A stretch of DNA of 64,000 nt, taken from a virus. Positions 1 to 28,241 of the stretch are shown here, piece by piece. The DNA is taken from positions 15,549-79,548 of the IMG/VR virus record IMGVR_UViG_3300044769_000253. One strand, 5' to 3'. The position numbers and the translations under genes were made by a program. The notes beneath the pieces are model-generated. The model was not told the origin of the DNA, made no database searches, and saw only the letters and a list, made by a program, of their open reading frames with translations. The number at the start of each line of letters is the position of its first letter. Position 1 is the stretch's first letter.

Positions 1-2
1 AT

Positions 3-6443: not shown

Positions 6444-6466
6444 CTCAAGGACTGCGAGGTTTTAGG

Positions 6467-8215: not shown

Positions 8216-8510
8216 TTACACACAGAATCTAGGTGATCGCAGAGAGTTGGAGTTTTTCGAAGCGATCGAGCGGGTTATCGCGGCCAGCCGCTATCGGCTC
8301 GATCCGCCTGGTGCGTTGTTGCGCCTGACTGACGTCGAGGCGGGCGACCTCGGGCTGAACGACCCAGCACGCGCCCACGTCCTACTGGTCGCTGCTCTCG
8401 GCGTGATCGACGGCTGCGCGCGTCGATGGGGAGAGAGCTCGGCCGAGCGGGACGAGTTTCTTCGCATCTGCGGAGCGGCCTTCGACAAGGCGCGAGGGTC
8501 CAATGCCTGA
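8208..8510 (+). CDS. hypothetical protein containing a 17-aa copy of a head-region protein segment
   Basis: ATG 8208; PPGALLRLTDVEAGDLG identical to ORF 33881-34408. Confidence 0.5.
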   Translation: MPDYTQNLGDRRELEFFEAIERVIAASRYRLDPPGALLRLTDVEAGDLGLNDPARAHVLLVAALGVIDGCARRWGESSAERDEFLRICGAAFDKARGSNA

Positions 8511-9937: not shown

Positions 9938-10614
9938 GTTCGACGAGCCGAGGCGCACAGCGCAACGCCGATGATTTCTACGAGACCCCTGCATGGGCGA
10001 CGCGGGCGGTGCTGCGCACGATCCCCTGGGAAGGCGACTGCAGACCGCACATCCTAGAACCGATGGCCGGGCGAGGGATGATCGTGCGTGAGCTGCGGGT
10101 ACGCTGGCCAGACGCCGTGATCACGGCATGCGAACTGGACCCCTCTCGTGCCAGTTGTCTCACGCAGGCCGGGGCCGATCACGTTCTGGTTGGGGACCTC
10201 TTCCAGCAGCAGTTCTCTTCGAAGTTCGATCTCTGCATCGGCAATCCGGCGTTTTCGCTGGCGATGCCCACAATCGAGCTTGGCATGAAGTGGTCCGTAC
10301 AGACGTCGCTGCTTGAGCGGTTGAACTACCTCGGCAGTCAGGACCGAGCGCCATTTTGGCGTAAGCACCCGCCCGACCTGCTGATCCTTCCGCGCCGGCC
10401 GAGCTTCGCGGCCTCGATGAAGTGTAAAGCGCGAGCCGGAGCCGCCGGATCCTGCGGGTGGAAAGCCACGTTCATGCTCACGGACGAAATGCCGCGCGTC
10501 TGTCCAGGATGCGGCTGCCAGGTCAGCAAGGTGACCACCGATTCCGTGGAGTACGCCTGGTTCTCTTGGGGACCACGCGGCGGCGGCACGTGGGCGATAG
10601 GAGACATCGCGTGA
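9934..10614 (+). CDS. N6-adenine DNA methyltransferase with Zn-finger insertion
   Basis: FYETP, ILEPMAGRG (motif I), IGNPAF (variant motif IV), CGWK...CPGCG insertion. Confidence 0.72.
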   Translation: MSSTSRGAQRNADDFYETPAWATRAVLRTIPWEGDCRPHILEPMAGRGMIVRELRVRWPDAVITACELDPSRASCLTQAGADHVLVGDLFQQQFSSKFDLCIGNPAFSLAMPTIELGMKWSVQTSLLERLNYLGSQDRAPFWRKHPPDLLILPRRPSFAASMKCKARAGAAGSCGWKATFMLTDEMPRVCPGCGCQVSKVTTDSVEYAWFSWGPRGGGTWAIGDIA

Positions 10615-11009
10615 AGAAGATCGCCTCGTTCTGCCTCCCCCTTGAGCTCTGTCCGACAACGAACGCCACGATCGGTGCGCACTGGAGCCGCGTCTCCAAG
10701 CTCCGAACGCAGTGCTACCAGGCGATGCTGCCGCAGTACGCGAGGCAATTCGGCCGGATGCCACCAGCTGGGATCACCGAGAGCCCAGGGCACCGTGTGA
10801 TCATCTGCACGCGGCACAGCTCGAGCCAGCCGGACCGGCACGCGAACTGGAGCAAAATACCGATCGACGCGCTTTCGCGTCGGACTCAGGAGCGGCCCCA
10901 CCGGCTCAGTCTGATTTGGGACGACGCCGAGGCGTTCGCGACCGTTGAAGAGCATTGGGAGCGCGCGCCGATGCGCGGGGGTTTCTGCACGATCGAGGTG
11001 TTCGAATGA
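10611..11009 (+). CDS. RusA-like Holliday junction resolvase
   Basis: PDxxxNxxKxxxDAL...IWDD acidic pattern; GTG 10611 overlaps upstream TGA. Confidence 0.55.
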   Translation: MKKIASFCLPLELCPTTNATIGAHWSRVSKLRTQCYQAMLPQYARQFGRMPPAGITESPGHRVIICTRHSSSQPDRHANWSKIPIDALSRRTQERPHRLSLIWDDAEAFATVEEHWERAPMRGGFCTIEVFE

Positions 11010-11248
11010 CTCGCCGCGAGCAACTGGACTGCTACCTCGGCGCCGTCGAGCGCCGCATGGAGCGAGCCGCGCAAACGTTCGGCGAACGTAGCTACTCGCG
11101 CGACCCACTCGAACTCGTGCGCGAAGTGAAAGAGGAACTGGAGGACGTTGCAGGCTGGGCGTCGATTCTATGGGCGCGACTCGACGATATCGAACGCGTG
11201 TTGGAAGCGCAGTTGAAAATCTCTGGAAAAGGAAGCACACCACCATGA
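11006..11248 (+). CDS. small helical hypothetical protein
   Basis: ATGA-coupled; EELEDV motif weakly MazG-like. Confidence 0.5.
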   Translation: MTRREQLDCYLGAVERRMERAAQTFGERSYSRDPLELVREVKEELEDVAGWASILWARLDDIERVLEAQLKISGKGSTPP

Positions 11249-11616
11249 CCGAGAACCTCCCCACGATTCGCCATTGGCTTCGGCAGACCTCTGCTTGGCT
11301 GGAGGTGACCGCCAACGTCGAACGTGTGTTCGGCGTGCCGGTCGACGCGCTGCTCTCGACGGCGCGAACAAACTCGGTATGCCTCCCACGCTTCGCCTGT
11401 TTCTGGGCTCTGCGAGAGGTGCACGGCTGGTCCTATCCGGACATCGGTGCAGCCTTCGCGCGGGACCACTCGACCGTCATGGGAGGGCTGAGGAGCCTGC
11501 AGCGGCGCGTCGAGCGCGATAGACGACTCGGTGAGCGCCTCGAACTGCTGAGACCACGGTACAACGCACTGGTCAGCACGGCGCGGCGCATGCGCGTTGC
11601 AGAGGTGGCGTCGTGA
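11245..11616 (+). CDS. stand-alone DnaA domain IV (helix-turn-helix) protein
   Basis: FGV..DAL...R...V..PR...W..R....SYPDIG..F.RDHSTV matches the DnaA C-terminal signature. Confidence 0.75.
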   Translation: MTENLPTIRHWLRQTSAWLEVTANVERVFGVPVDALLSTARTNSVCLPRFACFWALREVHGWSYPDIGAAFARDHSTVMGGLRSLQRRVERDRRLGERLELLRPRYNALVSTARRMRVAEVAS

Positions 11617-12137
11617 ACGAACCAAAAACCCGCTTCTACAACGTCCCGCGCGAGAAACACGAGGGGTGGGCCCGCATCTGGATCAGCGACGACGGCTGTT
11701 TCACCACGATCAGCGACTTCGGCAACTACGGTTATTGGTGGGGCTCCCCAGGGTGCGAATTCCGCGAGTTCCTCTGCGGCTGTGACGAAAGCTACCTGAT
11801 GGGAAAGCTCGGAATGGGGCGCCGAGAGTGGGACGAGGAGGCGACCAAGAAATCAATTGAGCGCGAGCTGAAGCGCCTACACGACGACGGAGGAGAGGAC
11901 ACGCGCGAGGAGCTCGCGTTGCTTGCCGAGGCTGACCTGTCCAGCGAGGCGGGCTTCGTGCGCTGGGTCGATGCGAGCGGAGACAGTGGCGAACGATTGA
12001 GCCGTCTAATGGATTCGGTCTACTGCGGCGAACTGGCCCAGTATCAGCCTCCCGTGCAACTGCAGATGTTCGTCAAACACATCTGGCCGCGGTTCGTCGC
12101 ACAGCTGCGGGCTGAAATCGCGACGGAGGCAGCATGA
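11613..12137 (+). CDS. hypothetical phage protein
   Basis: GTGA coupling; ISDFGNYGYWW motif. Confidence 0.6.
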   Translation: MNEPKTRFYNVPREKHEGWARIWISDDGCFTTISDFGNYGYWWGSPGCEFREFLCGCDESYLMGKLGMGRREWDEEATKKSIERELKRLHDDGGEDTREELALLAEADLSSEAGFVRWVDASGDSGERLSRLMDSVYCGELAQYQPPVQLQMFVKHIWPRFVAQLRAEIATEAA

Positions 12138-12313
12138 CCGCCCCACGACTCACCGAGGCCGAGCTGGCGGAGCTGCAGTCTGCGGTTGAGCTGCTCTGCA
12201 AGCCGCTGAACATGCTGGAGCGGATGGAGCGAGACCTCATGGTGGCGAACCAACGGATAGCGGAGCTGGAGCGGCAACTGGCCGAGTGCCGAGCGAGGAG
12301 TGACACCAGGTGA
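12134..12313 (+). CDS. small coiled-coil protein
   Basis: ATG 12134 to TGA 12313, overlapping both neighbours. Confidence 0.45.
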   Translation: MTAPRLTEAELAELQSAVELLCKPLNMLERMERDLMVANQRIAELERQLAECRARSDTR

Positions 12314-13491
12314 TCAACATCAAAGAGGAGTTCGTCGGCGGCCCGAAGTTTCTTCGAGCGCGAGAGCTTGGAGGGGATAGCGCGATCGTCCTCTGGCTCT
12401 GCCTGAAGGCCTACGCCGCTGCGAATCCGACGGACGGGTTCATCCCTGACGAAGACCTGGACGCGTTGCCAGGGCTGCCGAAGAGGCACAGAAAGCTGAT
12501 CCGGGCACTGCTCGAGTGCGGACGCCTTGGGCCGGACGGGATCCGTGGAGCCGGTCTCGTTGAGCGGACCGAGTTCGGTTGGCAGCTCCACGACTACCTG
12601 GACCACGCGATGAGCGCCATAGAATTGGAGTCGCGAAAGGAGAACGAGCGGACCCGCAAGGCGCTGTTTCGGGCGAAGACGTTCACAGGACCATCAGTCT
12701 ACGTGATGCGACGGGCGAGCGATGGGGCCTACAAGATCGGGTTCTCGGAAAACCCAGTGGACAGACGGCGCACGGTTCAGTCTGAAGAGCACTGCGCCGT
12801 GGAGTTGATCGGCCATGTGCGCGGCAGCTTGCGCGACGAAGGGCTACTTCACGCGCGTTTTGGCAAGTATCGCATTGGAAAGTCGGAGTGGTTCCATCCA
12901 GAGCCGGAGATTTTATCTATCCTTCAGAGACCCCGAGGACAACCCCAACCCCAATTCCAATTCAACCCCGAGGACAACCCCGAGGCTGAGCTCGGGGTAG
13001 TACCCCGAGGCGATCCCGCGCGAGCGGGCGCGCCCGCGCGCGCTCGCGCGCGCCCGTCCCAGCCCAGCCCAGCCCAACCGATCCGATCCGATCCAGAGTC
13101 TGGAACCTCCTCCGCTGAAGACCTGACAGGTAGCGCGCGCGCCGATGGGCCAGCGGAGGAGGGGGGTCCCCCGAAGCGCGATTCGCTCCGGCGGAAGCCA
13201 AAGGCCAGCCCGCTCACGCACGCCGACTTCCTCCAGCTCGAGATCGATAACCCAGGCCTGTCGCGAGCCTTCGCCGAAGCTGCGGCCACAGATTGGCTGT
13301 CGGAGCCTGATGCTAGGCAGGAAATGTTCGGTCGGCAGTGGCGAATCGTAGCGCTGAAGGTCGTTCGGTCAGCCTGGCGGAACGAGAGGCGCCGGCGGGA
13401 GCTCTTGGCGAAAATCGGCGCCTCTCCGCCGCCGCTCGACGCCGCAGGCCTGATCGCTGAGGCAGAAGCATTGGAGGCGCAGGGCCTATGA
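12310..13491 (+). CDS. putative replication initiator with embedded GIY-YIG (T5orf172/MUG113-like) domain
   Basis: N-terminal helical domain ending W.LHDY; VYVM...YKIGFS.NP..R...E..LH.RF...R....EWF; low-complexity linker; precedes helicase-loader-like gene. Confidence 0.62.
   Translation: MINIKEEFVGGPKFLRARELGGDSAIVLWLCLKAYAAANPTDGFIPDEDLDALPGLPKRHRKLIRALLECGRLGPDGIRGAGLVERTEFGWQLHDYLDHAMSAIELESRKENERTRKALFRAKTFTGPSVYVMRRASDGAYKIGFSENPVDRRRTVQSEEHCAVELIGHVRGSLRDEGLLHARFGKYRIGKSEWFHPEPEILSILQRPRGQPQPQFQFNPEDNPEAELGVVPRGDPARAGAPARARARPSQPSPAQPIRSDPESGTSSAEDLTGSARADGPAEEGGPPKRDSLRRKPKASPLTHADFLQLEIDNPGLSRAFAEAAATDWLSEPDARQEMFGRQWRIVALKVVRSAWRNERRRRELLAKIGASPPPLDAAGLIAEAEALEAQGL
12930..13010. 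repeat. iteron-like repeats, candidate replication origin
   Basis: ACCCCGAGG at 12930, 12965, 12977, 13002; inverted CTCGGGGT at 12991; neighbouring AT-richer patches. Confidence 0.55.
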
Positions 13492-14135
13492 AGCCTTCGG
13501 AATGCACGCGTCTGCTCGCGGTGGTCTTCGGTGGGTTCCCCCACGCGAAGCCGACCCCAGAGACCATCGAAGTCTATCGCGGCCTGCTGCTGGATCTGGA
13601 ATTCGATGTCGCGCAGAAGGCCGTGGCCAGAGTACTCGCGCTGCCGCGGGAGTTTCCGCCGAGCATCGGGCACATCCGTTCGGCGGTCGCGGATCTGATT
13701 CACGGTCCCGTCCGCGCTGGCGGCGAAGCCTGGGCCGACGTCAAGCAGGCAATTCAGCGTGTGGGTGGCCGATGCTATCCAGAGCCCGCATTCGCCGACC
13801 CTGTGGTCAGCACAACCGTCAACGCACTTGGGTGGCGTCAACTCTGGAACGAGCAGAATGAAACCGCAGACCGGGCTCGGTTCATCGAACTCTACGACAA
13901 GCTGGCGGCTCGGCGTCGAGCTGACGTCGCGTCGGGCATCCCGCTGCCGGAGCCAGAGGACCAGGCCGAACTGCCGCCTGCGCCGCAGCCACGTCGCCTG
14001 CGCGCGACGCAACCAGACCACCCAGCGCTTCCGGCATTCGCGCCAACGACTCAGCCACAGCGGCCGGAGTTTCAACGCAGGATGACCGCCGAGGAACTCG
14101 ACGCGGCGATCGAAGAAAAGGCAGGCACGCCGTGA
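13488..14135 (+). CDS. helicase loader/inhibitor-like protein (G39P-like N-terminus)
   Basis: LLA...FP....Y..LL.DL.....KAV......FPPSIGHIR, EAW; position after initiator. Confidence 0.6.
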   Translation: MKPSECTRLLAVVFGGFPHAKPTPETIEVYRGLLLDLEFDVAQKAVARVLALPREFPPSIGHIRSAVADLIHGPVRAGGEAWADVKQAIQRVGGRCYPEPAFADPVVSTTVNALGWRQLWNEQNETADRARFIELYDKLAARRRADVASGIPLPEPEDQAELPPAPQPRRLRATQPDHPALPAFAPTTQPQRPEFQRRMTAEELDAAIEEKAGTP

Positions 14136-14428
14136 GCATCGACCCGTCAGCGATCCGAGGAATCACGATCTGTACCTGCTCGATGGGTCCATGCGAGAAG
14201 CACCGCCCTCACCGACCATCGGAAGCTGAGCAGGAACGCGCCGAACTCGTGGCGCGGGCCAATCAGGTGCCCGGGCTCACCGCGGCGCTCGACGAGGCCC
14301 GCTGGAAGCTCGCGAAGGCCAAGGATCTGGCGGCCAGGATCATTGCGTTCGAGCGCGAGTGGGCATCCGAAGGTCTGCCGGTGCAGATCGAGCAATGGGA
14401 GCGCGAACTCGCGGAGCTCGACCAATGA
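14132..14428 (+). CDS. hypothetical protein
   Basis: GTGA/ATGA coupling. Confidence 0.5.
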   Translation: MSIDPSAIRGITICTCSMGPCEKHRPHRPSEAEQERAELVARANQVPGLTAALDEARWKLAKAKDLAARIIAFEREWASEGLPVQIEQWERELAELDQ

Positions 14429-14610
14429 GCGACGAGCGCTTCACGCCCGAGGAGCAAGCGTACCCGTATCGAGGGCCCTACCGGAGCCCCGATCCAGATC
14501 CACCACCGAACCCAAGAGGGCGGCCGAGCGCCGAAGAGGTCGAAGAGCATCTGCGGGAGTACCGCCGTCGGATGGGCATCCCAGAGCCAAAGCCGAAGGA
14601 GCAGCCGTGA
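14425..14610 (+). CDS. small Pro-rich hypothetical protein
   Basis: ATG 14425 coupled to neighbours. Confidence 0.4.
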   Translation: MSDERFTPEEQAYPYRGPYRSPDPDPPPNPRGRPSAEEVEEHLREYRRRMGIPEPKPKEQP

Positions 14611-14951
14611 AAAGTGGCAAGGGCGCGCAGCAACTTGTCGAGCTGTTGGATCGTCGCAACGCAGTACGCGACGAGCTGGAGGCGGTCTCGGGTACGGGTG
14701 ACGCGGCCCGGAAACATCGGCGCAAGCTGCAAGAGAAGCTCTCCAAACTGCGGACCCAGATCGATCAGGCGCGGTCAGAGGCACCGCGTGAGCGATTCTG
14801 CACGCACCTCCGCTTTCGGCGGAAGGTACGCTACGAGAGCAGTGACGCGGCGCGAGCGGCTCCCGTGAAGGAAGGCCTGCGGCTGACGGTCTATCGGTGC
14901 GAGTACTGCGACGGATGGCACCGAGCGAAGGAGACCAATGGAAACGCCTGA
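14607..14951 (+). CDS. hypothetical protein with C-terminal Zn ribbon
   Basis: VYRCEYCDGWH. Confidence 0.55.
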   Translation: MKSGKGAQQLVELLDRRNAVRDELEAVSGTGDAARKHRRKLQEKLSKLRTQIDQARSEAPRERFCTHLRFRRKVRYESSDAARAAPVKEGLRLTVYRCEYCDGWHRAKETNGNA

Positions 14952-15609
14952 AGAACTTGCACGACTCACCGAGGCCGAACTGGCGGAGCTCGAGCGCTTG
15001 CTCCAGCACGATGGCAGCCATCGAATCCTGCTCCCGGTGCTGCTTGCTCGCGCCCCCCGCCTCATCGCCGCCGCCCGGCTGGCCAATGAGCAGACTGCGG
15101 AAGCGTGCGAGAATCTCCAGCTGGCAACCGACCTATCCGAGAGTCTATCCGAGGCGCAAGCCACGATCGAATGTTTGGGCAAGAGGGCTCAAATGATCAT
15201 GTCCGGCGAGTCACTGCGCCTGCTCGTAACTGGCTCGCGCGATTGGACAGACCGTCGCCTGTTGGAGTCTGCACTCGATGGCATCGTCCAATGGCTCTTC
15301 ACCGACGTCGTGCCCATCGTGGTGCACGGTGCGTGTGAAACAGGCGCGGACGCGATGGCGGACGAGTGGGCGCGCAGTCGAGGCTATTGGCGTGAGCCGC
15401 ATCCGGTTGTACGAGAACATGGTCCGTGGCCGGCGGCTGGTCCACGCCGCAACCGCGAGATGGTCGAAGCTGGCGCGCGCGTGTGCGCGGCGTTCCGTCT
15501 GCACGGAGAGCCCAACAAGGGCACCACCGACTGCTTCAAGCAGGCCATTCGCGCCTGCATAGCAACGCTGGTTGTAACCATGCTCATCCGGTTGTCTCCC
15601 AACGGGTAA
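14938..15609 (+). CDS. SLOG/DUF2493-family protein; last codons read into the IS1595 left end
   Basis: LLVTGSRDW, VVHGAC.TGAD, AGPRRN.EMV, KGT.DC. Confidence 0.72.
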   Translation: METPEELARLTEAELAELERLLQHDGSHRILLPVLLARAPRLIAAARLANEQTAEACENLQLATDLSESLSEAQATIECLGKRAQMIMSGESLRLLVTGSRDWTDRRLLESALDGIVQWLFTDVVPIVVHGACETGADAMADEWARSRGYWREPHPVVREHGPWPAAGPRRNREMVEAGARVCAAFRLHGEPNKGTTDCFKQAIRACIATLVVTMLIRLSPNG

Positions 15610-16128: not shown

Positions 16129-16179
16129 GCGGTGCGCGGCTGGGCCCTGGTTCGCCGGGGCCCACTGCGAGGTAACACC

Positions 16180-17241
16180 ATGAGCCCCGCCCAAACGCAC
16201 GACGTGCACCGCGGGGCCTTGCCCTTACCGCGATCGCTGCCCGAATTCCAGCGCCTGTTTCCCGACGACGCGGCGTGCGGCGCGTACCTTGAGCGGTGCC
16301 GCTGGCCCGAGCTGTTTCGCTGCCCCGCGTGCGGCGTGGGCGGCGACCCGTTTCGCTTCGCGGCTCGCCCTGGCGTGCTGCGTTGCCGGGCCTGCCGCAA
16401 GGACACGAGCCTCACGGCGGGCACCATCATGCACCGCACGCACAACCCGCTCAGCACGTGGTTCTGGGCCGCCTACCTGGTGAGCACGCAGACGCCGGGC
16501 ATGTCGGCCACGCAGTTCGCGCGGCAGCTGGGCCTGACCCGCTACGAGACGGCGTTTCAGATCTTGCACAAGCTCAGGGCCGCCATGATCCGGCCGAACG
16601 TGGATCGCATCGGCGGCGAAAACGTGGTGGTCGAGCTGGACGAATCGCTGGTCGGAGGCGCCACCCGAGGCGAGGGGCGAGGCGTCCACCACAAAGTGTA
16701 CCTTGCCGGCGCTGTGGAGAGCCTCCAGCGCGCTCCGGCCGCGGACGGTGGCAAGCTGGCCAAGAGCAAGCTCCGACGCAATGGCACCTACGCCGGGCGC
16801 CTGCGATTGCGTGTCCTGCCCGACCGCACGGCGCCGGGCCTGCTCGGGTTCGCTCGCGAGTCGATTGCTCAGGGCTCGTTCGTCCGCACGGATGACTTCC
16901 CGGGGTACGCGCAGCTCGATCTGGAGTGCGGCGTGCGCCATTCGCCCGTGGCCGAGCGCGGCGACCCTGCCGTAGCCGAGGCGCACCTGCCGCTGATTCA
17001 CCTGGTTTTCTCGAATTTCAAAGCTTGGTTGCAGGGGACTCATCACAGCGTTTCTCCGAAGCATTTGCAGGCGTATGCCAACGAGTACGTGTTCAGATTC
17101 AATCGCCGGTTCTATCCGTTCAACGGATTCCGATCTTTGCTGGGGCTCGCCGCGACGCAGGAGTCGATGACGTACGACGGTCTGTATTCCGACGAGTGCG
17201 TACATCCTGTCGCGGTCGGACCGTGGGAGTTAACCGGATGA
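16180..17241 (+). CDS. IS1595-family DDE transposase with N-terminal Zn ribbon
   Basis: CPACG...CRACR; VELDESLVGG; VRTDD..GY; HLQAYANEYVFRFNRR; stop lies in the right TIR. Confidence 0.92.
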   Translation: MSPAQTHDVHRGALPLPRSLPEFQRLFPDDAACGAYLERCRWPELFRCPACGVGGDPFRFAARPGVLRCRACRKDTSLTAGTIMHRTHNPLSTWFWAAYLVSTQTPGMSATQFARQLGLTRYETAFQILHKLRAAMIRPNVDRIGGENVVVELDESLVGGATRGEGRGVHHKVYLAGAVESLQRAPAADGGKLAKSKLRRNGTYAGRLRLRVLPDRTAPGLLGFARESIAQGSFVRTDDFPGYAQLDLECGVRHSPVAERGDPAVAEAHLPLIHLVFSNFKAWLQGTHHSVSPKHLQAYANEYVFRFNRRFYPFNGFRSLLGLAATQESMTYDGLYSDECVHPVAVGPWELTG

Positions 17242-18030: not shown

Positions 18031-18266
18031 ACACGGAGACAGCCTTCGTGGTGGTAATAGGTGCCTGTATGTCGGTGTTCGCAACGTCCGTGCGTTGCGA
18101 GACACTCAGTCCAGGAACGCTGCGCGTCTACGTGCGGCAAGAGGTGCCGGGTTGGGCAAGCGGGTTCGGCATTACCCCGGAGTGGTGGCTTGGCGAGGTC
18201 ACGGAAGCGTTTCGCGAAGCGTTCCCACAGTCGTGGGACGTTGCATTCGTTGCGGAGGTTGACTGA
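18027..18266 (+). CDS. small hypothetical protein
   Basis: GTG 18027 overlaps upstream TGA. Confidence 0.4.
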   Translation: MNTETAFVVVIGACMSVFATSVRCETLSPGTLRVYVRQEVPGWASGFGITPEWWLGEVTEAFREAFPQSWDVAFVAEVD

Positions 18267-18267
18267 A

Positions 18268-19449
18268 ATGAACGAGCGACATCCCGAGGCGTTGCCATGG
18301 ATCTTTGCGCGCTCTGATTCATCAGAGATGCTGACCGTTTGGGAGCGAAGTGGTTTCGATGCATGCCAGCGCGCACCGAGGGCGTTCTTCGAGGAGAACG
18401 GCGTGCGCGAGGACAACCCACGACTGGTGGTGAACCCCTGCCTGGAGCTTTCAAAGGCAAAAGAGATTGCGCTGAAGCTCGAGACAATGCCGCGATGCGT
18501 CTGGACCTCCGAGCCTGGAGAGCACAACAAAGAGGCGCTTCAACTCGAGTCAGCGCAGGAGGAGGAACACCTCGAAGGGCGAATTGCAGACCTGAACGAT
18601 GGCGATGCGAAGCGACTCGAACTCGCCATGATGGAAGCATCGACCAAAATGGCCCAGCGCGTGTCCATCGACATGGCAACAGCGATGGGACTCCTCGAGA
18701 GGATTTCGCAGCTGGAGCAGTACCGCGACGAAAGGATCGAGGATTGCTTGCGGCTGAGCGCGGAGGTCGAAGCGGCACGAAAGCTGATTTCTGAACTGCG
18801 CATCGGGTGGCTGGACGGGATCGATCAGAACGGAGAGAGACACCCGCCGAGCTCAGTGGAGCACAGATTGCGCGCATGTTTCGAGCGCGAACCGGACCGC
18901 AGCAACGTAGAATCGAAACGGGAAGCAAGGCCTGAGTGGCGACTCCAAGCCAGACCTGGTCAGCTCGCTCCGAGCGGGGATTGGACTGTGTGGCTGATTG
19001 CCAAGGATCGTGGTTGGGGAAAGACGAGGGCTGCATCCGAGTGGATCCGCGAGCGTGTCAACGCGGGCGCGCGAAATATCGCCCTGGTTGGACCGACGCC
19101 CGAGTTCGTCGAAATGATGGTGGAACAGCTGCTGGACTGTTGCCCTCAGACGGAGGCGAGTTACTCGCCCGGCAAGCGGCGGGTGACGTTTGCGAACGGT
19201 GCAATCGCGACGACGTACTCTGCGGAAGAGCCCGATCAGCTTCGAGGTCCGCAGCACGACACCGCGTGGTGTGACGAGCCGGCGAAGTGGCGCTATCCCG
19301 AAGCGTGGGACCAGCTCATGTTCGGACTGCGCCTTGGTTTCCCACTCAAGAACGGTGGCGAGTCGAGCGAGCGCCCTCGCTGCGTCGTGACCAAGAAGCT
19401 TGAATTGATCGATCTGATCCATCGGGATTGGGAGTATGTCGTCACATGA
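18268..19449 (+). CDS. fusion of an unknown helical domain to a truncated terminase-large-subunit ATPase domain
   Basis: From about 18937: RGWGKTR (Walker A), AWCDEPAKW (Walker B); 53 aa identical to TerL; no nuclease domain. Confidence 0.78.
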   Translation: MNERHPEALPWIFARSDSSEMLTVWERSGFDACQRAPRAFFEENGVREDNPRLVVNPCLELSKAKEIALKLETMPRCVWTSEPGEHNKEALQLESAQEEEHLEGRIADLNDGDAKRLELAMMEASTKMAQRVSIDMATAMGLLERISQLEQYRDERIEDCLRLSAEVEAARKLISELRIGWLDGIDQNGERHPPSSVEHRLRACFEREPDRSNVESKREARPEWRLQARPGQLAPSGDWTVWLIAKDRGWGKTRAASEWIRERVNAGARNIALVGPTPEFVEMMVEQLLDCCPQTEASYSPGKRRVTFANGAIATTYSAEEPDQLRGPQHDTAWCDEPAKWRYPEAWDQLMFGLRLGFPLKNGGESSERPRCVVTKKLELIDLIHRDWEYVVT

Positions 19450-19700: not shown

Positions 19701-19746
19701 AGATTCAGCCTTGACGAGAGGTTGCACCAGCAGAAAGAGAAGAAGC

Positions 19747-20991
19747 ATGGAGTACGAAAAGCGAAAATATCAGGAGACTGCAATCGCGGAGGTGCACGTG
19801 AGCATCGCCGCGGGCAAGCGCGCTCCCTGCCTGGTCATGCCGATCGGCAGTGGTAAGACGTACGTTGCGGCTCGCATCGCCAGTAGCGGACGCATTCTGT
19901 GGGTGGCTCCATCACAGGAGCTAGTGCAGCAGGCTGCAGAGGTGACGGTTGGAATGTACGGGATCGACGCCGTCAGCGTGATGATGCCGGGCGGACACTA
20001 CCGCCCGCACGCACGGATCCAGGTTGCAACCGTTGGAACGCTATTGGCGCGTGGGCTGCCAGAGAACGTAGACAAGCTCATACTGGACGAATGCCATCAC
20101 ATGCCGGCCGATGTGTGGCGCAGCATCCCTGACGAGTACAAGAGCTGTTCGCGCATCGGCCTGACTGCGACGCCTGAGCGCTCAGACGGCAAACCGCTCG
20201 GCGACATCTTCGACCATCTGATTGTCGGTGCGCGACGGCAAGACCTCGTCGAGCAGGGCATTCTCGTGCCGTGGGTGATCTACCAATCAGAGCGGCACAT
20301 GGGTCATGATTACGCTGTCGATCCTCTGGCCGCATGGAGGGAGCTGACGAAGCTACTTCCAGACCCGCGGACATTCGCCTACTTTCGGGACGTGTCGGAG
20401 GCCGAGGCTTGGGCGCGCGCGTTTGAGCAAGCTGGCATTCCGTCGGCGTGTATCAGCTGCATGACACCGGACGGGGACAGGACCCAGATCCTGGACGGGT
20501 TGCGACGACGAAACGACTGCCGGCAGATCGATGTGGTGACAAACGTGGGCACGATGGGAGAGGGTGTCGACGTGCCGCCAGTCAGCTGCGTTATCCTGGC
20601 GAGCCAATTCCGCTTTGGTGGCAGGTACGTGCAAGCCTGCGGGCGCGCGGGGCGTTGTTCGCCAGGTAAGGAGTTCGCGCTGCTAATCGACCCAATCGGA
20701 TCGAGTCGGCGACACGGCAACCCCAACGACGATTGGGAGTACTCCCTCGAAGGTCGCGATGGTATGCGCAGAATTCAGATCGTGAATGGACCGAAGGGCG
20801 GGAACGGGCCGCGGGAACGAAGCACGCCGGTGACGGCGGACAATGCCCTCATCCTTTCGGACGCCACTGACTACACCGGTGCCGGCGCTGAGAAGTTCGT
20901 GCGCCGGTATCTGGCGCAGCCCAACGCGCAGCGGCTGGCGAAGGCACAGAGTCGCATCGCGCACACCCTAGCCGGAGGAATGGCGGAATGA
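19747..20991 (+). CDS. SF2 DEAD/DEAH-box helicase (ResIII/UvsW-like)
   Basis: MPIGSGKT, LDECHH, GLTATPER, EGVDVP, QACGRAGR. Confidence 0.85.
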   Translation: MEYEKRKYQETAIAEVHVSIAAGKRAPCLVMPIGSGKTYVAARIASSGRILWVAPSQELVQQAAEVTVGMYGIDAVSVMMPGGHYRPHARIQVATVGTLLARGLPENVDKLILDECHHMPADVWRSIPDEYKSCSRIGLTATPERSDGKPLGDIFDHLIVGARRQDLVEQGILVPWVIYQSERHMGHDYAVDPLAAWRELTKLLPDPRTFAYFRDVSEAEAWARAFEQAGIPSACISCMTPDGDRTQILDGLRRRNDCRQIDVVTNVGTMGEGVDVPPVSCVILASQFRFGGRYVQACGRAGRCSPGKEFALLIDPIGSSRRHGNPNDDWEYSLEGRDGMRRIQIVNGPKGGNGPRERSTPVTADNALILSDATDYTGAGAEKFVRRYLAQPNAQRLAKAQSRIAHTLAGGMAE

Positions 20992-23249
20992 CCACGGAGG
21001 TTTTGAAATACTACGTCCACGAAATCACCGAGGGGAAAGAGTGGGCAGTGTACGTCCGCGACGAACAGGACACCAAGCGCGTGGATCACATGGCGCTCGG
21101 TCATGACTACTACCGCAAGCTCCTGGCCGCGCACGTGTCGGCGCGCGAGGAGTACCGGCGGATTCGCCGCGAAACGCTGCCATCGATCGCTGCGTTGGAG
21201 TCCGAAGTCGCTGGGTTCAATGATCGGTTGGAGGAGATACTGCAGGACATACGGAACGCACGGCGCAAGGCTTCGGCACCTCGTACTGCAGACGGCCCAG
21301 CGCACCCGCAGCGACTGCCCGCGACCGGCGCGCAGCGCGAAGAGATCGAGCGTTTGCGAGATCGGCAGAAGAGCCTCTATGCCGAGTTTAAGGAGCGGCG
21401 AAGCGAGTTCGACGCACTCTTGGCGCCGGCCGCAGCCGAGTACGAGCGCCGCACTACGGGCTGCCCCATCGCGCTCATCGAACAGATTGCGGAACTGGGA
21501 CGCCAACTGAAAGCTGCCAAGAGGACGCGCGACAACCCGGACGTGCCTGCGCTAAAGCGCGCGCTGAGCGACGCGAAAAAACGCAAGAAAGACATCTCAC
21601 CCAAGACGCACGCGAAGCGCCAGGCGAACATGGATACGCTGGGCGAAATGCTGGTCGAGGACTGGCCCGAGCCGTGGAAGGCCGTCATGCGGTCCAGACA
21701 GAAGCGCGACGAGCAATGCAAGAAGCTGCGCGCTGAAAGCGGGCTGACACATGGCACTTACAGCGCCGTCGAGGACGCCGTGAAGACTGCGCTAAAAACG
21801 AGCGAGGGCGACCCGCACGTGAAAGGGTTTCGCGCGCGCAAAATAGGACTGCAGATTCAGAACAAACCACTCAGCGGGGAAGCTTTCAAAGTAGGCAGCG
21901 ACGATCGGCTCCGCATCGTTTCGTGCGAGCGCAGCTTCGGCCGGAGAGATCCGAGCAAACGAGTTGCTCGGCGCGACGATCCGAAGCGCCCGTCGAACCG
22001 GCAGCTACGTCGACACGCGGTCGCACGAATGCGCCTGGCAAAGGATCGGTACGTCAGCATGGCGGTGCTGCTGCACCGAGACATACCAGATGATGCCCGC
22101 ATCACGTGGGCCTACCTCGTCCCGCGCATCGGTGGAGATGGTCGGACGCGCTACTCACTGCAGCTGACGGTGAATCTGAGTCGCCCGATGGTCCAGCGCA
22201 GCCAAGGGGCTGGCGATTGCGTCGTGCGGCTGGGTTGGTCGATGGATCCTGAGGGTGATGGGATCGTTGTCGCACGAGCGAACGGAGAGGCCGTTACAAG
22301 CGGAGCGCGTATTGTCAAGCGCACCGAGATCGTCTCGGATATTCGTGGATGGCGGGACAAGTGGTTCGAGGGCTCGAAAGGCGACCCGGGGCGCGGTGTG
22401 AGAGACGTGCTTGCTCTCTGGATCCAAGAGAACCCGTCTCTTGTTCCCGACTGGATGGTGGAAGCGACATCGGCAAAGTCAGGCGATGACACGCATCGCA
22501 AGCGCGGGTCGCTGCGCCAGTGGAAGAACCATCGCGCGCTCGCCAGGATCGCCAGACGGTGGGTGCAGGAAATTCCTGGGCTGAGGGCCGAAGTGGTCGG
22601 CGAGCAACGGCATGAGCCCAGGGCGTGGCGCGAGAAACGCAGCCGGTGGAGCAATCGGTTTTCCCGCACGCCGCGGACACGGTTGCAGCAACTGTGGGTC
22701 GATTGGTGCCGCACACGCGACGCAATGCGCACCGACTACGAGAACGCCAGCGGCGATTACCACGTGGCGAACCGCGAGGTGCTGAACGCCTGGCTCAGTG
22801 AGCGACACGGCATCACCGACCCCGCCATGCAGATGGCGATCTGGCTCGAATGGTGGCGGCGCAAGGACGCACACCTGGAGCGCTATGCGCGGGAGCTGGA
22901 AATCAAGGCGCGAGCAGAGCGCAAGAACCGGTATCGGTGCGTAGCGGCGAAGTTGTCCCAGCGATATGGCAGGGTGCTGGTCGACAAATTCGACCTGCGG
23001 CAGGCGGCCCGGCACAGCAAAACCGACGAGGAAGCCGACGAACTGAATGAGCGCGCACGCTGGCAGCGGACGGTGGCGAGCCCGAGCGAGTTCATCGAGT
23101 GTCTTCAGGCGGCCTTTGGCCCGGAGCGCTTCAAGGTCCGGAAACGCGAGCGGTCCGGTGACGAGCCGGACCCAGGAGGCGCTCGCGGATCGCCAGGGGA
23201 GCATGAAAACCGCGCGGAAAGTGTTGCCGGATTGGCGGCTGCGGAGTAA
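20988..23249 (+). CDS. cas12m: Cas12m-like (type V-M/V-U1) nuclease-dead CRISPR effector, 753 aa
   Basis: Collinear Cas12m-type motifs recognised from memory: long Arg-rich N-terminal helices, LHRDIPDDARITWAYLV, VVRLGWS (RuvC-I Asp to Arg414), QWKN..LA.IA..W, RY..VAAKLS..YG.VLVD (RuvC-II position, Asp666), R..ASPSEF; no Zn finger or RuvC-III; directly upstream of the array. Confidence 0.8.
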   Translation: MTTEVLKYYVHEITEGKEWAVYVRDEQDTKRVDHMALGHDYYRKLLAAHVSAREEYRRIRRETLPSIAALESEVAGFNDRLEEILQDIRNARRKASAPRTADGPAHPQRLPATGAQREEIERLRDRQKSLYAEFKERRSEFDALLAPAAAEYERRTTGCPIALIEQIAELGRQLKAAKRTRDNPDVPALKRALSDAKKRKKDISPKTHAKRQANMDTLGEMLVEDWPEPWKAVMRSRQKRDEQCKKLRAESGLTHGTYSAVEDAVKTALKTSEGDPHVKGFRARKIGLQIQNKPLSGEAFKVGSDDRLRIVSCERSFGRRDPSKRVARRDDPKRPSNRQLRRHAVARMRLAKDRYVSMAVLLHRDIPDDARITWAYLVPRIGGDGRTRYSLQLTVNLSRPMVQRSQGAGDCVVRLGWSMDPEGDGIVVARANGEAVTSGARIVKRTEIVSDIRGWRDKWFEGSKGDPGRGVRDVLALWIQENPSLVPDWMVEATSAKSGDDTHRKRGSLRQWKNHRALARIARRWVQEIPGLRAEVVGEQRHEPRAWREKRSRWSNRFSRTPRTRLQQLWVDWCRTRDAMRTDYENASGDYHVANREVLNAWLSERHGITDPAMQMAIWLEWWRRKDAHLERYARELEIKARAERKNRYRCVAAKLSQRYGRVLVDKFDLRQAARHSKTDEEADELNERARWQRTVASPSEFIECLQAAFGPERFKVRKRERSGDEPDPGGARGSPGEHENRAESVAGLAAAE

Positions 23250-23335
23250 AACCGGATGGACATCGCGCAGCAAAACCGGAGGCTCTCGCAATATGCGTGG
23301 CATCACCGCGAAAACAGACGCGGAACGGTGGACCT

Positions 23336-23806
23336 GCTCCAATGGCATCGCGACGCCTACGAGATCGCGACTCGACACGTTGACCCGGGTGTCGGAGCGG
23401 ACCGGCGGCTCCAATGGCATCGCGACGCCTACGAGATCGCGACAGCGTGATGACGCCGCCGGCGATCGTCAGCGGCGTGCTCCAATGGCATCGCGACGCA
23501 TTGGAGATCGAGTCACGACGATCCACGGCGGCCTGCCATCAGGGCCTTCGTCGGCTCCAATGGCATCGCGACGCCTACGAGATCGCGACCCTGCGCTGGG
23601 CGCACCAACGAGCGCGACACGCCACGCTCCAATGGCATCGCGACGCCTACGAGATCGCGACAGCGAGGGTCGCTCGAGCAGCATCGAATCCAGGCGCTCG
23701 CTCCAATGGCATCGCGACGCCTACGAGATCGCGACGCGTGGATCTGGAAAAGGCGGCTCCCCTGAGGGATGCTCCAATGGCATCGCGACGCCTACGAGAT
23801 CGCGAC
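23336..23806 (+). CRISPR. CRISPR mini-array: 7 x 36-nt repeats, 6 spacers (36,35,39,36,38,35 nt)
   Basis: GCTCCAATGGCATCGCGACGCCTACGAGATCGCGAC at 23336, 23408, 23479 (5 mismatches), 23554, 23626, 23700, 23771; partial repeat end GAGATCGCGAC at 23815-23825; TCGCGA stem. Confidence 0.97.
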
Positions 23807-23838
23807 CCGAGCCTGAGATCGCGACTAAAGGAAAAAGG

Positions 23839-24185
23839 ATGACAAACGCAACCCAACTGACGGACGTTCCACGCGGCAACCACGACGATCGGGTCTACGA
23901 CGGATTCCTTGATTCGTTCCACCCGTCCGAGCGCCAGTACCACAACTGCAGCGCGTGCCGGCACTTCATTCAGCGGTTCACCCGCGCGCGTCGATGATCG
24001 GCACGCTGCTGGAGGACATTGAGGAGGGACTGGACTTCGGGGACGTGTCACGCAAGTTCGCTAGCAAGATGCATCCACTGCAGTACCAGCGCCCGCAGGC
24101 AGCGCCGTCGGTCGGCAACATCGAAGAGTCGGAGAAGATCGTCGCGAAGCTCAGCACGGGGGAGCCGATGGGCGAAAGGAAGTGA
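23839..24185 (+). pseudogene. deletion remnant of a larger phage protein, two out-of-frame halves
   Basis: ...HNCSACRHFIQRF joined out of frame near 23978 to HPRASMIGTLLEDI...KMHPLQYQRPQAAPS; I recall these as N- and C-terminal parts of one phage protein family. Confidence 0.5.
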
Positions 24186-24309
24186 TGCAGACGGCGATTG
24201 TGAGCGGCGGCGTGACGGTGACCTTGAGGATGGCGACGTCTTCGGGGGCGCCCGCGACTTACATCGGCGATTCGCTGGAAGGCCCGTGGCGACTCAAGGA
24301 GACGACGAC

Positions 24310-24477
24310 ATGAAGCTGAGTTCTATCAACCGAGTGCTCCGATGGTTCGGCCTGGTGCTCGTGGTTGCCGTACCCGACGGCGACTGCCTAGAGGGCAACG
24401 AGGATACGCCGATCAGACTCTGGATCGAACGCTGGCTTACGTTCGAGCGCAGGTGCCGCGCGCAGGCCATGCTCTAG
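24310..24477 (+). CDS. small hypothetical protein
   Basis: GGAG RBS, ATG 24310. Confidence 0.4.
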   Translation: MKLSSINRVLRWFGLVLVVAVPDGDCLEGNEDTPIRLWIERWLTFERRCRAQAML

Positions 24478-24544: not shown

Positions 24545-25480
24545 ATGCAGGCAATCAAAACAACCAAGCGCACCGGGCGGGCACCGGTGTGCACCGCACT
24601 CGAGTCGCCGCCGGACTGGCGCGCGGAGTGGAAGCGGCGTGTCGCGTTAGCGAAAGTGTCACGCTACCTGAGTGCCGGGGACCTGACCGACGTGAGGTGG
24701 TACTTCCACCGTGAACGTGGGTTCGAGTCGTCGCCGTACTACGGTATGTGGCAGCGGGCGCTCCTGTACTCGCGTGGCGCGGTCCCATGCAGGCAATGCG
24801 GCGGGTCCGAAGACGCCGCAGGCAGTCCTGGGTGCGGCTTCGAAATGCCCGACGGCCAGACCCCTCTCGTGCCACGGAACGAAGAGGAAGCGCGCTTGCT
24901 TAGGCTTCTGGAGGTGGAGCTGCCGTCCCCCCTGGGCGACAGGGTGTGCTCCGAGTGTGATGGCAAGGGCTGGATCATCGAGAAATATCGCCGCAATTTC
25001 GCCGGTGCAGTGAGCGCGCGCCCGATGGGTTCGAGCATCAAGTCGAAGATGGGCGGGTCCATCGAGATGTCGGGCGACAACATCTGGCGGCTGGGGCACG
25101 TGATGCGCCTGCTCCGGGAGGCGACCGCCCGCTTCCCCATGGCCACGCTGGTGTTCGAGTGTTTCTACTCGCCGGGCGGGGAGCCACTCGACCCGGCCGA
25201 AGAAAAGCCGGTGACGCTCACCAAGCGGCGCCTCGAGCGTGAAGCTGGGCTCGCGGGCGTGTGGGAAATCACGCCGGCCGGGAAGACCATGCTCAAACAA
25301 AACAGTTTCAAGCTCCACCCGCTGCAATACTTCGCAAATCAGCGAGAAGAGCAGCGACGCAAGCCGAAAGCGGCACGGGGTGACGCTTTCAAGGCGGCCG
25401 ACGATCAGGCAAAGATGCTCGTCGCACGGTCGAACATCGCTTGGAACATGGCCAAATCGGGGATTTGGGTGGCCGAATGA
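24545..25480 (+). CDS. DnaJ-type Zn-finger protein, possible late-gene regulator
   Basis: CRQCGG and CSECDGKG; position before packaging genes. Confidence 0.5.
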   Translation: MQAIKTTKRTGRAPVCTALESPPDWRAEWKRRVALAKVSRYLSAGDLTDVRWYFHRERGFESSPYYGMWQRALLYSRGAVPCRQCGGSEDAAGSPGCGFEMPDGQTPLVPRNEEEARLLRLLEVELPSPLGDRVCSECDGKGWIIEKYRRNFAGAVSARPMGSSIKSKMGGSIEMSGDNIWRLGHVMRLLREATARFPMATLVFECFYSPGGEPLDPAEEKPVTLTKRRLEREAGLAGVWEITPAGKTMLKQNSFKLHPLQYFANQREEQRRKPKAARGDAFKAADDQAKMLVARSNIAWNMAKSGIWVAE

Positions 25481-26287: not shown

Positions 26288-26941
26288 GTGGCAGCGCGAA
26301 AGGGTCGCCCCAAGGGGCCGTCCGAGATTGCGAGTGCTCCGCGCCGCCCGAATGCTCTGCCTTCGGCATCGCGAGCGGAAAGTACCATGAGCGCGCGCGC
26401 GCGTTCTTCTGTCGTCGAATTGAAGCAGACGCTCATCAACGAGCGCCTCAAGGACCCGGCGACCCAGCTCAAGATCGACCCTCGTTTGCCCAAGGGCAGG
26501 CCAGGGAAGCGCGAGCGGCTCGACTACATCATCGAGCTGATGGTTTCGAACCGCTGGGTCACCGGCATCACCGGCCCGATGCTCGCATCGATCTGGGGCC
26601 TCGCGAAGGTCACGGTCGATAAGGATGCCGCCGAGGCGTCGCGCCAGATCGGGTCGTTTTCGCGAGCGGACCGGGAGCAGCGCAAGGCGCTGTGGCTCGC
26701 AAATCTGGAGTCAGCGCGCGCGAAGGCCTACCGAGACTGTCGAATGGAATCGGTGAAGGGGCTTCTGGAACTCGAGGGCAAGGCGTTCGGTTTCTTCGAG
26801 CCTGAACGCCACTCCGTGGACGTCGAGGTTTCGAATGCAGCTGAGCTTGCCGAAAGGATCGGAGAGGTCGCCCGCCGAATGGCTGGCGAGTCTACCGGAA
26901 GCGCACCGAGCGAAGATCCTGACGGAGCTGAGCGACGCTGA
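26288..26941 (+). CDS. terS: terminase small subunit (putative)
   Basis: Directly upstream of and overlapping TerL; helical, C-terminal AAELAERI; start uncertain. Confidence 0.6.
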   Translation: MAARKGRPKGPSEIASAPRRPNALPSASRAESTMSARARSSVVELKQTLINERLKDPATQLKIDPRLPKGRPGKRERLDYIIELMVSNRWVTGITGPMLASIWGLAKVTVDKDAAEASRQIGSFSRADREQRKALWLANLESARAKAYRDCRMESVKGLLELEGKAFGFFEPERHSVDVEVSNAAELAERIGEVARRMAGESTGSAPSEDPDGAERR

Positions 26942-28241
26942 AGCGAAGAGCCTTCGGTGGAACTGGCGTTTCTGGGCACGACCGAAGCAGATTGCGCCGC
27001 CCGGCAAGTGGGTCATCTGGCTCATCATGGCGGGGAGAGGGTTCGGGAAAACTAGACTTGGCGCCGAGTGGATCCGCGAGCGCGTCAATTCGGGCAAGTC
27101 GCGACGCATCGCTCTGGTAGCCGAGACGGCAGCCGACGCTCGCGACGTGATGGTGGAAGGCGAGAGCGGATTGCTATCGTGCTTTCCGGCGTCGGAGCGG
27201 CCGATATACCAGCCAAGCAAGCGCCGTGTGACGTTCGCGAACGGAGCGATCGCGACGACGTACTCGGCGGAGGAGCCCGACCAGCTTCGAGGTCCGCAGC
27301 ACGACACGGCGTGGTGTGACGAGCCGGCGAAGTGGCGCTATCCCGAAGCGTGGGACCAGCTCATGTTCGGACTGCGCAGCGTCGAGACCGATCCGCGCTG
27401 CGTTGCGACGACCACGCCGAAGGCAGTCGAGCTGATTCTGCGTTTGGTCGCGCGCGCTGGTGACGACGTCGCACTGACCACGGGAACGACGTTCGAAAAC
27501 CGCGCCAACCTGGCGCAGGTCTTCATCAACGAGATCACCCGGCGCTACGCCGGCACGCACCTCGGCGAACAGGAGCTCGAGGGCAAGCTCATCGAGGATG
27601 CGAAGGGCGCGCTATGGCACCGGGGTTGGATCCGGCGTGTCGCGCGCGCACCGGCGATGAAGCGCATCGTGGTCGCTGTCGACCCGTCGGTTTCTGCGGA
27701 CACCGAAGGCGCGGCGACTGGCATCGTTGCCGCCGGCGTCGGTGTCGATGGTCGCGCCTACGTCCTGGCGGACGGGTCGCTCGACCAGCCCACTCCAGAC
27801 CAGTGGGCGAACGCGGTCGTCGCTCTATTCGAGGCCCAACAGGCCGATCGCATCGTCGTCGAGGTGAACCAAGGCGGCGACCTCGTTCGAGCAAACCTGC
27901 AGAGCGTCAAGAGGTTCCTGCCGATCACCGAGGTTCATGCGACGCGCGGAAAGGCCGTGCGCGCGGAGCCGATCGCGGCGCTGTACGAGCAAGGCCGGGT
28001 CTCGCATGTCGGCACGTTTGCTCTGCTCGAAGACGAGCTTTGCAAGTGGGAGCCGAACAGCGGCGCTCGCAGTCCGAACCGATTGGACGCGCTCGTCTGG
28101 GCAATGACGGAACTCTACCCCGAACTCACACTAGGCCCCGTCGAACTCAGCGCAGAGGATGCAGCGGTCCAAGACGAGTCGGTTTGGGGTCGCGAGCATA
28201 GCGTTTTCGGAGAAGACGGCGGCTCATTCTGGGGCAACTGA
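26835..28241 (+). CDS. terL: terminase large subunit
   Basis: AGRGFGKT, AWCDE, ATTTP, nuclease VVAVDPS, VEVNQGG, RAEP, SPNRLDALVWA. Confidence 0.95.
   Translation: MQLSLPKGSERSPAEWLASLPEAHRAKILTELSDAEAKSLRWNWRFWARPKQIAPPGKWVIWLIMAGRGFGKTRLGAEWIRERVNSGKSRRIALVAETAADARDVMVEGESGLLSCFPASERPIYQPSKRRVTFANGAIATTYSAEEPDQLRGPQHDTAWCDEPAKWRYPEAWDQLMFGLRSVETDPRCVATTTPKAVELILRLVARAGDDVALTTGTTFENRANLAQVFINEITRRYAGTHLGEQELEGKLIEDAKGALWHRGWIRRVARAPAMKRIVVAVDPSVSADTEGAATGIVAAGVGVDGRAYVLADGSLDQPTPDQWANAVVALFEAQQADRIVVEVNQGGDLVRANLQSVKRFLPITEVHATRGKAVRAEPIAALYEQGRVSHVGTFALLEDELCKWEPNSGARSPNRLDALVWAMTELYPELTLGPVELSAEDAAVQDESVWGREHSVFGEDGGSFWGN

Follow-up and report, generated by a model that had tools for sequence, protein, structure and literature searches.

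A phage-borne Cas12m-lineage protein without the TNB zinc finger and RuvC-III helix, encoded between a helicase gene and a CRISPR array

Introduction

A programmable block without cutting has been shown experimentally for canonical Cas12m, the effector of type V-M CRISPR systems, which works without a partner (PMC10442227, PMC11013384). In Cas12m2 of Mycolicibacterium mucogenicum the RuvC site is an HDD triad of His317, Asp485 and Asp579, and the TNB zinc finger is built from His549, Cys552, Cys569 and Cys572 (PMC10442227). A 'gradual inactivation' has been noted for type V-M (PMC10691335), and engineered removal of the TNB abolished the activity of PmCas12m (bioRxiv 10.64898/2026.03.26.714355). 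Here we analysed a stretch of 64,000 nucleotides (nt), referred to as the window, which is part of the 90,778-bp IMG/VR provirus record IMGVR_UViG_3300044769_000253 (positions 15,549 to 79,548) and whose positions serve as coordinates throughout. It carries a gene for a 753-amino-acid (aa) protein followed by a CRISPR array, which a sequence-only reading had proposed to be a phage-borne, nuclease-dead Cas12m-like effector with its own array.

Compared with the described Cas12m proteins (Cas12m2, 8hhl and 8hio; 8pm4; PmCas12m; 23vw), the 753-aa protein belongs to the same family by sequence, profile and predicted fold. The locus shares with them an array without adaptation genes and without a detected anti-repeat, a 36-nt repeat with the same predicted CRISPR RNA (crRNA) pseudoknot, a non-canonical RuvC triad whose RuvC-II residue is Asp, like that of the HDD clade, and residence on a mobile element. 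It differs in that a deletion has taken away both the RuvC-III helix and the TNB zinc finger, which is of HCCC type in Cas12m2, the RuvC-I residue is Arg, about 190 extra residues are found in the REC region and in an insertion inside RuvC, the carrier is a phage and not a plasmid, and a helicase gene is coupled upstream.

Earlier work describes V-M systems in prophages (PMC11656645), and MvCas12m of myxophage MV-1 was called the first phage Cas12m. Like the protein described here, MvCas12m has an adjacent array, no cas1, cas2 or cas4 and no spacer targets found; unlike it, MvCas12m has 610 aa, an intact D-E-D triad from which its authors expect a nuclease, and no described link to a helicase (bioRxiv 10.64898/2026.09.14.751636). 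The FLSHclust survey contains, in addition, a hybrid of Cas12m and Cas3 and a type V effector that is linked to Mu and lacks RuvC-III (PMC10910872). The hybrid resembles our locus in combining a non-cutting Cas12m with a helicase-type partner that could add activity beyond binding, but that partner is a type I-C-like Cas3 helicase-nuclease, whereas the helicase here is a superfamily 2 (SF2) protein of XPB/RadD type without a nuclease domain in our scans, and the effector here has lost the TNB and RuvC-III as well. Type IV-A, with its Csf complex and DinG, would be a functional analogue only: it too resides on mobile elements, binds DNA under crRNA guidance without a nuclease, has a helicase and no adaptation genes, and silences competitors, but its effector is a multi-subunit class 1 complex of unrelated sequence and its SF2 helicase is of DinG type. 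Our literature search, which was of incomplete coverage, returned no description of a Cas12m lineage that lacks the TNB, and none of an association with an XPB/RadD-like helicase, though large censuses may hold such sequences.

Organisation of the locus

The features of the locus, all on the plus strand, are as follows.

19711-20991, plus strand: SF2 helicase gene of XPB/RadD type; likely start ATG at 19747, giving 414 aa; Pfam ResIII, Helicase_C and DEAD
20988-23249, plus strand: cas12m-like gene (protein P0001), 753 aa; Cas12m fold without the TNB zinc finger and RuvC-III helix
23250-23335, plus strand: leader, 86 nt between the stop codon and repeat 1
23336-23806, plus strand: CRISPR array of seven 36-nt repeats and six spacers of 35-39 nt, in the orientation of the cas gene
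23479-23514, plus strand: variant third repeat, in which the 3' stem is lost and an 8-bp hairpin is gained between the 5' part and the middle
23815-23825, plus strand: truncated terminal repeat, which follows repeat 7 after 8 nt and comprises the last 11 nt only (read from the sequence)

An open reading frame (ORF) of 753 aa whose stop lies 86 nt before a seven-repeat array, as described from the sequence alone, was thus recovered, and the end that had been given for the locus, 23825, coincides with that of the truncated terminal repeat. The 753 codons are uninterrupted and their GC content at third codon positions (GC3) matches that of the neighbouring genes. As the N-terminus of the protein aligns with the N-termini of its homologues, the start call is sound, and as only 86 nt separate the stop from the array, a split gene is impossible. 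The ATG overlaps the stop of the upstream helicase gene by 4 nt. The absence of cas1, cas2 and cas4, seen earlier in the window, extends to the whole 90,778-bp record, where the Pfam models of Cas1, Cas2 and Cas4 found no match while their controls were positive in 6-8 known genomes.

The effector is a member of the Cas12m family

Pfam and NCBIfam searches of the 753-aa protein returned nothing, as did tblastn against 50,697 phage records, and no relatives came up when IMG/VR and 185,579 species genomes were searched by pattern. A single-protein phmmer search of the PDB retrieved Cas12m chains only (23vw_A, 6.7e-10; UnCas12m4a, 7.5e-7; 8pm4_A, 9.7e-5). Among 1.84 billion representatives scanned there were 1,131 relatives, 51 of them below 1e-30. 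Profile A1, built from 48 close relatives, matched 23vw_A (3.8e-70), UnCas12m4a (8.8e-40), 8pm4 (1.5e-35) and Cas12m2 8hio/8hhl (4e-32) over the full length and no PDB chain outside Cas12m, and the PADLOC model Cas12u1, which bears the old name of V-M, matched the protein at 6.2e-35.

The AlphaFold2 model (pLDDT 87.8, pTM 0.82) shows the bilobed WED/REC/RuvC fold with coiled-coil REC that is typical of Cas12m. Foldseek placed four Cas12m entries on top (E about 1e-16), and VIA-align gave Z 18.8 for 8pm4_A (492 residues; root mean square deviation 4.0) and Z 18.5 for Cas12m2 8hhl_A, with aligned lengths of 480-492 residues for the two, compared with Z 11-12 for TnpB and Cas12f and about 9 for Cas12k. 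The protein is therefore a Cas12m (V-M) family member by sequence, profile and predicted fold, RuvC and WED included, as the sequence-only reading had recognised from motif order; its suggestion of an undescribed type V clade does not hold, the protein being a branch inside V-M that Cas12u1 models already detect. The two insertions, put at roughly 70 and 100 aa by that reading, come to about 90 and 100 aa when the protein is compared with the Cas12m chain 23vw_A, which has 577 aa.

Another RuvC-fold, RNA-guided family whose catalytic residues are lost is that of the TldRs, which act as repressors. Some TldRs also lack the C-terminal part that holds the zinc finger and RuvC-III. They are, however, TnpB-sized and use a single omega-RNA-type guide without a CRISPR array, whereas the present protein is followed by a seven-repeat array and is far closer to Cas12m (Z 18.8) than to TnpB (Z about 12); it is not a TldR by these measures.

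An internal deletion removed the TNB and RuvC-III

In the profile alignment to Cas12m2, Arg414 stands opposite His317 at RuvC-I and Asp666 opposite Asp485 at RuvC-II, the same two residues that had been proposed for these positions. VIA-align placed model residues 1-721 on residues 2-545 of 8hhl, ending just short of the TNB (His549-Cys572). In the model the fifth RuvC strand (715-718) is followed by a disordered tail, and the protein ends 42 residues past the last RuvC strand. No CxxC or HxxC motif occurs after residue 712, and the Pfam model Cas12f1-like_TNB did not match the 753-aa protein. The zinc finger and RuvC-III are thus missing, as had been claimed, and the RuvC positions that remain hold what appear to be non-catalytic residues.

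The loss needs to be described differently from a C-terminal truncation. In relatives that keep the TNB, the last strand is followed by CxxC...CxxC, by a helix resembling RuvC-III ('D.D.NAA.N', or 'D.NNCLN' where inactivation has already taken place) and, at the very end, by ERSGGD..PGGAR...AAE. In the 753-aa protein the last RuvC strand is fused straight to a terminal ERSGD..PGGAR...AAE peptide, and because this peptide is retained the loss is an internal deletion of about 55-60 residues.

The terminal peptide itself, ERSG(G)D..PGGAR and a variable stretch ending in AAE, occupies residues 721-753 of P0001 and the C-termini of P0045, P0077 and P0102, and is conserved in both domain-deleted and TNB-keeping members, while P0034 and P0040 have the alanine-rich ending only. 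A similar C-terminal end (GGxxE) is found in three of the four closest linked helicases, and one idea is that the two ends form a shared docking motif.

The deletion recurs among relatives

Among the 146 near-full-length proteins of the 150 best representatives, the TNB/RuvC-III segment is lacking in 55 (whose short remaining tail has no more than one CxxC/HxxC match), kept in 86 and unclear in 5. Homologues at 26-45% identity share the C-terminal ending of the 753-aa protein, and the ten members that were looked up all come from metagenome assemblies. The 55 deleted relatives have R, K, H, S, T, Q, D or E at RuvC-I and almost any residue at RuvC-II, whereas domain-keeping relatives have D, N or H at RuvC-I and mostly E or D at RuvC-II. 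Such free drift is as expected once selection on catalysis has ceased, and the deleted forms with drifting positions extend the 'gradual inactivation' of V-M (PMC10691335).

On the tree the deleted forms make up one clade of 37, which includes the 753-aa protein (Shimodaira-Hasegawa-like support 99), and a second group of about 17. Constraining them to a single origin was rejected weakly by the approximately unbiased (AU) test (p 0.015 and 0.03), which is suggestive only, the tree being a quick LG+G4 one and the groups having been named after a first tree was seen. As their joint grouping is weakly rejected, two losses are likely, and the deletion has likely arisen in at least two lineages, judging from these sequences.

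The Cas12m scaffold thus tolerates losing both the RuvC-III helix and the TNB zinc finger in nature. As engineered deletion of the TNB killed PmCas12m, the lineage must compensate in some way, perhaps through the enlarged REC region and RuvC insertion or through the linked helicase, and it offers a natural experiment on the role of the TNB in effectors that only bind DNA.

The CRISPR array and its leader

Six of the seven repeats are identical, whereas the third carries clustered changes; the 28-nt repeat core occurs six times compared with none expected in shuffles. The fold of the third repeat (-10.9 kcal/mol, z -0.9) is no better than that of shuffles, and its changes might prevent the processing of one crRNA. 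As the repeat's 3' end holds a stem-loop on the plus strand, the array is read in the direction of the gene.

Two interleaved stems, one of 3 bp (GGC/GCC) and one of 6 bp, are 91.7% paired in a set of 24 repeats drawn from four loci, compared with at most 46% with slid partners, and four pairs covary in a compensatory manner. The 3-bp stem is nearly invariant, with G-U changes only, which is consistent with a pseudoknot but does not prove one. The paired positions, -28..-26 with -17..-15 and -23..-20 with -6..-3, are those published for the PmCas12m crRNA scaffold (bioRxiv 10.64898/2026.03.26.714355), and the repeat therefore probably encodes the 5'-handle pseudoknot of a Cas12m-type crRNA. 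No anti-repeat was found in the window at up to 3 mismatches in 28 nt, which is a weak test for a trans-activating crRNA.

The leader carries a C.CTCGCAA motif (TCGCAA at 23286-23291) and, 17 nt on, CGAAAA (23309-23314), about 45-60 nt upstream of repeat 1. The pattern C.CTCGCAA-17 nt-CGnAAt is conserved in seven aligned loci and was also seen in locus L065. The arrangement is promoter-like and may be a promoter, but a sigma-70 consensus scan found nothing and lends this reading no support. An Rfam search also gave nothing, and the leader folds no better than shuffles.

Related repeats lie downstream of the homologues in L007, L008, L009/L010, L011, L012/L013, L014-L016 and L065, and an orphan array with related repeats in L020. 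The last is the one true extra array that a degenerate repeat pattern found in metagenomes, besides four chance matches; in species genomes the pattern gave 35 single matches, equal to the chance expectation, and none of these genomes encodes the effector. Several Logan contigs stop within the first repeat, as would happen if a repeat had interrupted the assembly. The arrays vary: that of L011 (2690-2938) is inverted relative to the effector gene, and that of L012 (4683-6122) has at least 20 repeats in two variants with compensatory stem changes (CGGGA/TCCCG versus CTGGA/TCCAG). Mini-arrays of 2-4 degenerate repeats, 50-55 nt from start to start, occur in L007 (4766-4960) and L065 (12160-12250), with only about 15-19 nt between repeats compared with the 35-39-nt spacers elsewhere.

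Two ORF calls adjoin the array of the window. One of 316 aa (23047-23997) runs across it, like a probably spurious 313-aa call across the L012 array. The other, of 52 aa (23839-23997, plus strand), follows the array directly, has a good ribosome-binding site, contains CSAC and matches the start of phrog_1735, a PHROG of 673 positions without functional annotation (1.7e-6). The ORFs that come after it in other frames (24019-24477 and 24545-25480) matched no PHROG, and 24545-25480 also no Pfam model; the gene that begins with the 52-aa ORF may be broken.

A coupled SF2 helicase gene upstream

The conserved, translationally coupled helicase gene is the most distinctive feature of the locus. Its product matches phrog_16 'DNA helicase' (E=3e-64), and its nearest solved chains are RadD (6jde, 4.9e-33) and archaeal XPB/Rad25. 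In 11 of 12 distinct phage-borne loci the cas12m-like gene is immediately preceded by this helicase gene, the two overlapping by 4 nt or standing 0-52 nt apart, a conserved linkage of the kind known from Cas3 in type I and DinG in type IV-A. The helicase-linked relatives are L007, L008, L009/L010, L011, L012/L013, L014, L016, L061, L064 and L065, of which L061 encodes an effector with a TNB-like segment still present and a dead site. Two plasmid-borne canonical Cas12m loci have no helicase. The linked helicases are 33-51% identical to one another and share a C-terminal extension. As tblastx among the loci found no similarity outside the helicase and effector genes, the pair is a module and does not reflect whole-genome synteny.

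Proposed function and alternatives

We regard it as very likely that this member of the Cas12m lineage binds DNA under crRNA guidance, has no nuclease activity and serves the phage to block other DNA. The fuller explanation that we favour, and consider probable, is that the locus is an interference module of a temperate phage, comprising the SF2 helicase gene, the coupled cas12m-lineage gene, the short leader and the CRISPR array. The 753-aa protein, which appears to retain the Cas12m WED, REC and RuvC-fold scaffold, would load crRNAs that carry the Cas12m-type pseudoknot 5' handle from the repeat, find complementary double-stranded DNA and hold it as an R-loop, and transcription or replication of the target would in this way be blocked programmably. 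Cutting by RuvC is not expected because the TNB and RuvC-III helix are deleted and the remaining catalytic positions, here Arg and Asp, drift freely. The likeliest targets would be rival phages or plasmids that the phage or its lysogen encounters, although we would put rival mobile elements as the target at no better than even. The analysis shows the family membership, the predicted fold, the deletion, the degenerate active site, the conserved repeat structure, the phage context and the conserved adjacency of the helicase gene, whereas crRNA loading, DNA binding, silencing and the class of target are inferred from here on.

That the XPB/RadD-like helicase works with the effector is a tentative proposal that falls somewhat short of an even chance; it might be loaded at the R-loop or aid unwinding now that the TNB is gone, in the manner of DinG in type IV-A and Cas3 in type I. 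A stronger version, which we find doubtful, would make the locus a class 2 counterpart of type IV-A, in which the Cas12m that shed its TNB and RuvC-III forms an obligate pair with the helicase and its R-loop loads a translocase that stalls polymerases on rival DNA or removes them from it; such an obligate pair would represent a type V variant that depends on a helicase and has not been described before. Should the helicase prove to be a partner, class 2 would join types I and IV in helicase recruitment, and the pair would be a new programmable tool for targeting without cutting. In any case the locus is a recurrent, conserved addition to the short list of phage-encoded CRISPR effectors.

Several observations weigh against the interference module with a working helicase. 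No target was recovered: blastn-short found no protospacer in the provirus and no match beyond 14 nt in its 90.8 kb, 37 spacers from five arrays gave only chance matches of 13-14 nt in all related loci fetched, the whole array had no match among INPHARED phages and PLSDB plasmids, and 22-mers of spacers 1, 2 and 6 had none in IMG/VR. As removal of the TNB kills PmCas12m, function without it is not guaranteed. With respect to the helicase, the relative L017 has no such neighbour, phrog_16 is common in phages, with 562 cultured-phage records at about 30% identity that are without any Cas12m, and the distances of helicase and effector are not significantly correlated (Mantel r 0.28, p 0.08). These last points would fit a purely positional adjacency, in which the helicase is the replication helicase of the phage and the Cas12m-like protein forms a roadblock by itself, as canonical Cas12m does (PMC10442227, PMC11013384). 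We give this a substantial chance, though one well under even, since the adjacency recurs in 11 of 12 loci with otherwise dissimilar flanks, start and stop often overlap by 4 nt, and the linked helicases, with their common C-terminal extension, are 33-51% identical mutually compared with about 30% to the best cultured-phage helicases.

The other alternatives concern the role of the effector itself. It could be a regulator and not a weapon, with fixed guides that send the dead effector to host or phage promoters in a TldR-like way and reprogram expression during infection or lysogeny. The gene lies within an early/replication operon and is not a separate moron, the effector appears nuclease-free, and the mini-arrays of L007 and L065, with their gaps of about 15-19 nt, are what fixed guides predict and therefore keep the regulatory reading alive; we still judge it improbable, as no spacer matches the 90.8-kb provirus beyond 14 nt and long, diverse arrays elsewhere (at least 20 repeats in L012) are typical of adaptive targeting. 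A homing or transposition module, where an inactivated Cas12 picks insertion sites as in CasMu-V or in the CRISPR-associated transposons of Cas12k, would suit a phage with Mu-type portal and baseplate genes, and CasMu-V effectors, with which comparison was by description only, are also described as lacking RuvC-III (PMC10910872). Nevertheless, it is highly improbable: neither MuA nor MuB was found, scans of the record with the rve, DDE_2 and Mu-transpos_C models gave nothing (only the rve control was positive, so that the other two scans are weak), a tyrosine integrase is present instead, related loci carry the replication and recombination genes DnaB, RecT and YqaJ and not transposases, and Cas12k reaches only Z about 9. 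Decay of a Cas12m locus into a functionless remnant could account for the lost domain and catalytic motif, the degenerate repeat and the truncated terminal one, but it is very unlikely given an intact ORF of 753 codons with GC3 as in its neighbours, the same architecture with conserved motifs and a confident fold in 55 diverged representatives, compensatory changes in the repeat and a conserved leader motif. Equally remote as the transposition module is a viral Cas mimic acting as an anti-CRISPR that soaks up host crRNAs or blocks a host Cas12m. Viral cas homologues antagonising CRISPR immunity have been reported (bioRxiv 10.1101/2023.06.24.545427), and a protein apparently without nuclease function would fit, but every locus that extends far enough has its own array, a matching co-evolving repeat and a conserved leader, all needless for a decoy.

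Phage context and neighbouring genes

Among the genes of the record are those for a large terminase, a Mu-type portal, a prohead protease, baseplate proteins and a tyrosine integrase, and from this gene content it is a temperate tailed phage, which bears out the phage-borne location that had been claimed for the effector. Two genes lie at the left end of the provirus record, outside the window (coordinates of L023, which is record 1-15548).

L023 962-2521, minus strand: tyrosine integrase
L023 7033-7629, minus strand: sigma-70-family protein (regions 2 and 4)

The sigma-70-family protein may allow the phage to control promoters of its own, among them perhaps the conserved leader motif. In Pfam scans of 30 ORFs the only transposase or integrase genes were the tyrosine integrase and an IS1595-family transposase (DDE_Tnp_IS1595 and zinc ribbon; 16132-17241, plus strand) that forms an insertion in the early region, upstream of both the helicase gene (by about 2.5 kb) and the effector gene (by about 3.7 kb).

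Apart from these, a 462-aa early ORF (18061-19449, plus strand) matches the N-terminal ATPase part of the large terminase over residues 317-414 (Pfam 6.5e-6, PHROG 6.8e-5), the real terminase being at 26835-28241. The early region also encodes, on the plus strand, a HerA/DUF87-type ATPase (1412-3445) and a SNF2-family helicase (6467-8215), which match PADLOC defence models (HerA; ZorD/DpdE) and could be replication or defence/counter-defence genes. Besides, a 382-aa TnpB lies at 5235-6383 on the minus strand (OrfB_IS605 and Cas12f1-like TNB, E=5e-21), so that the same phage encodes an apparently complete RuvC-family RNA-guided protein along with the domain-deleted Cas12m.

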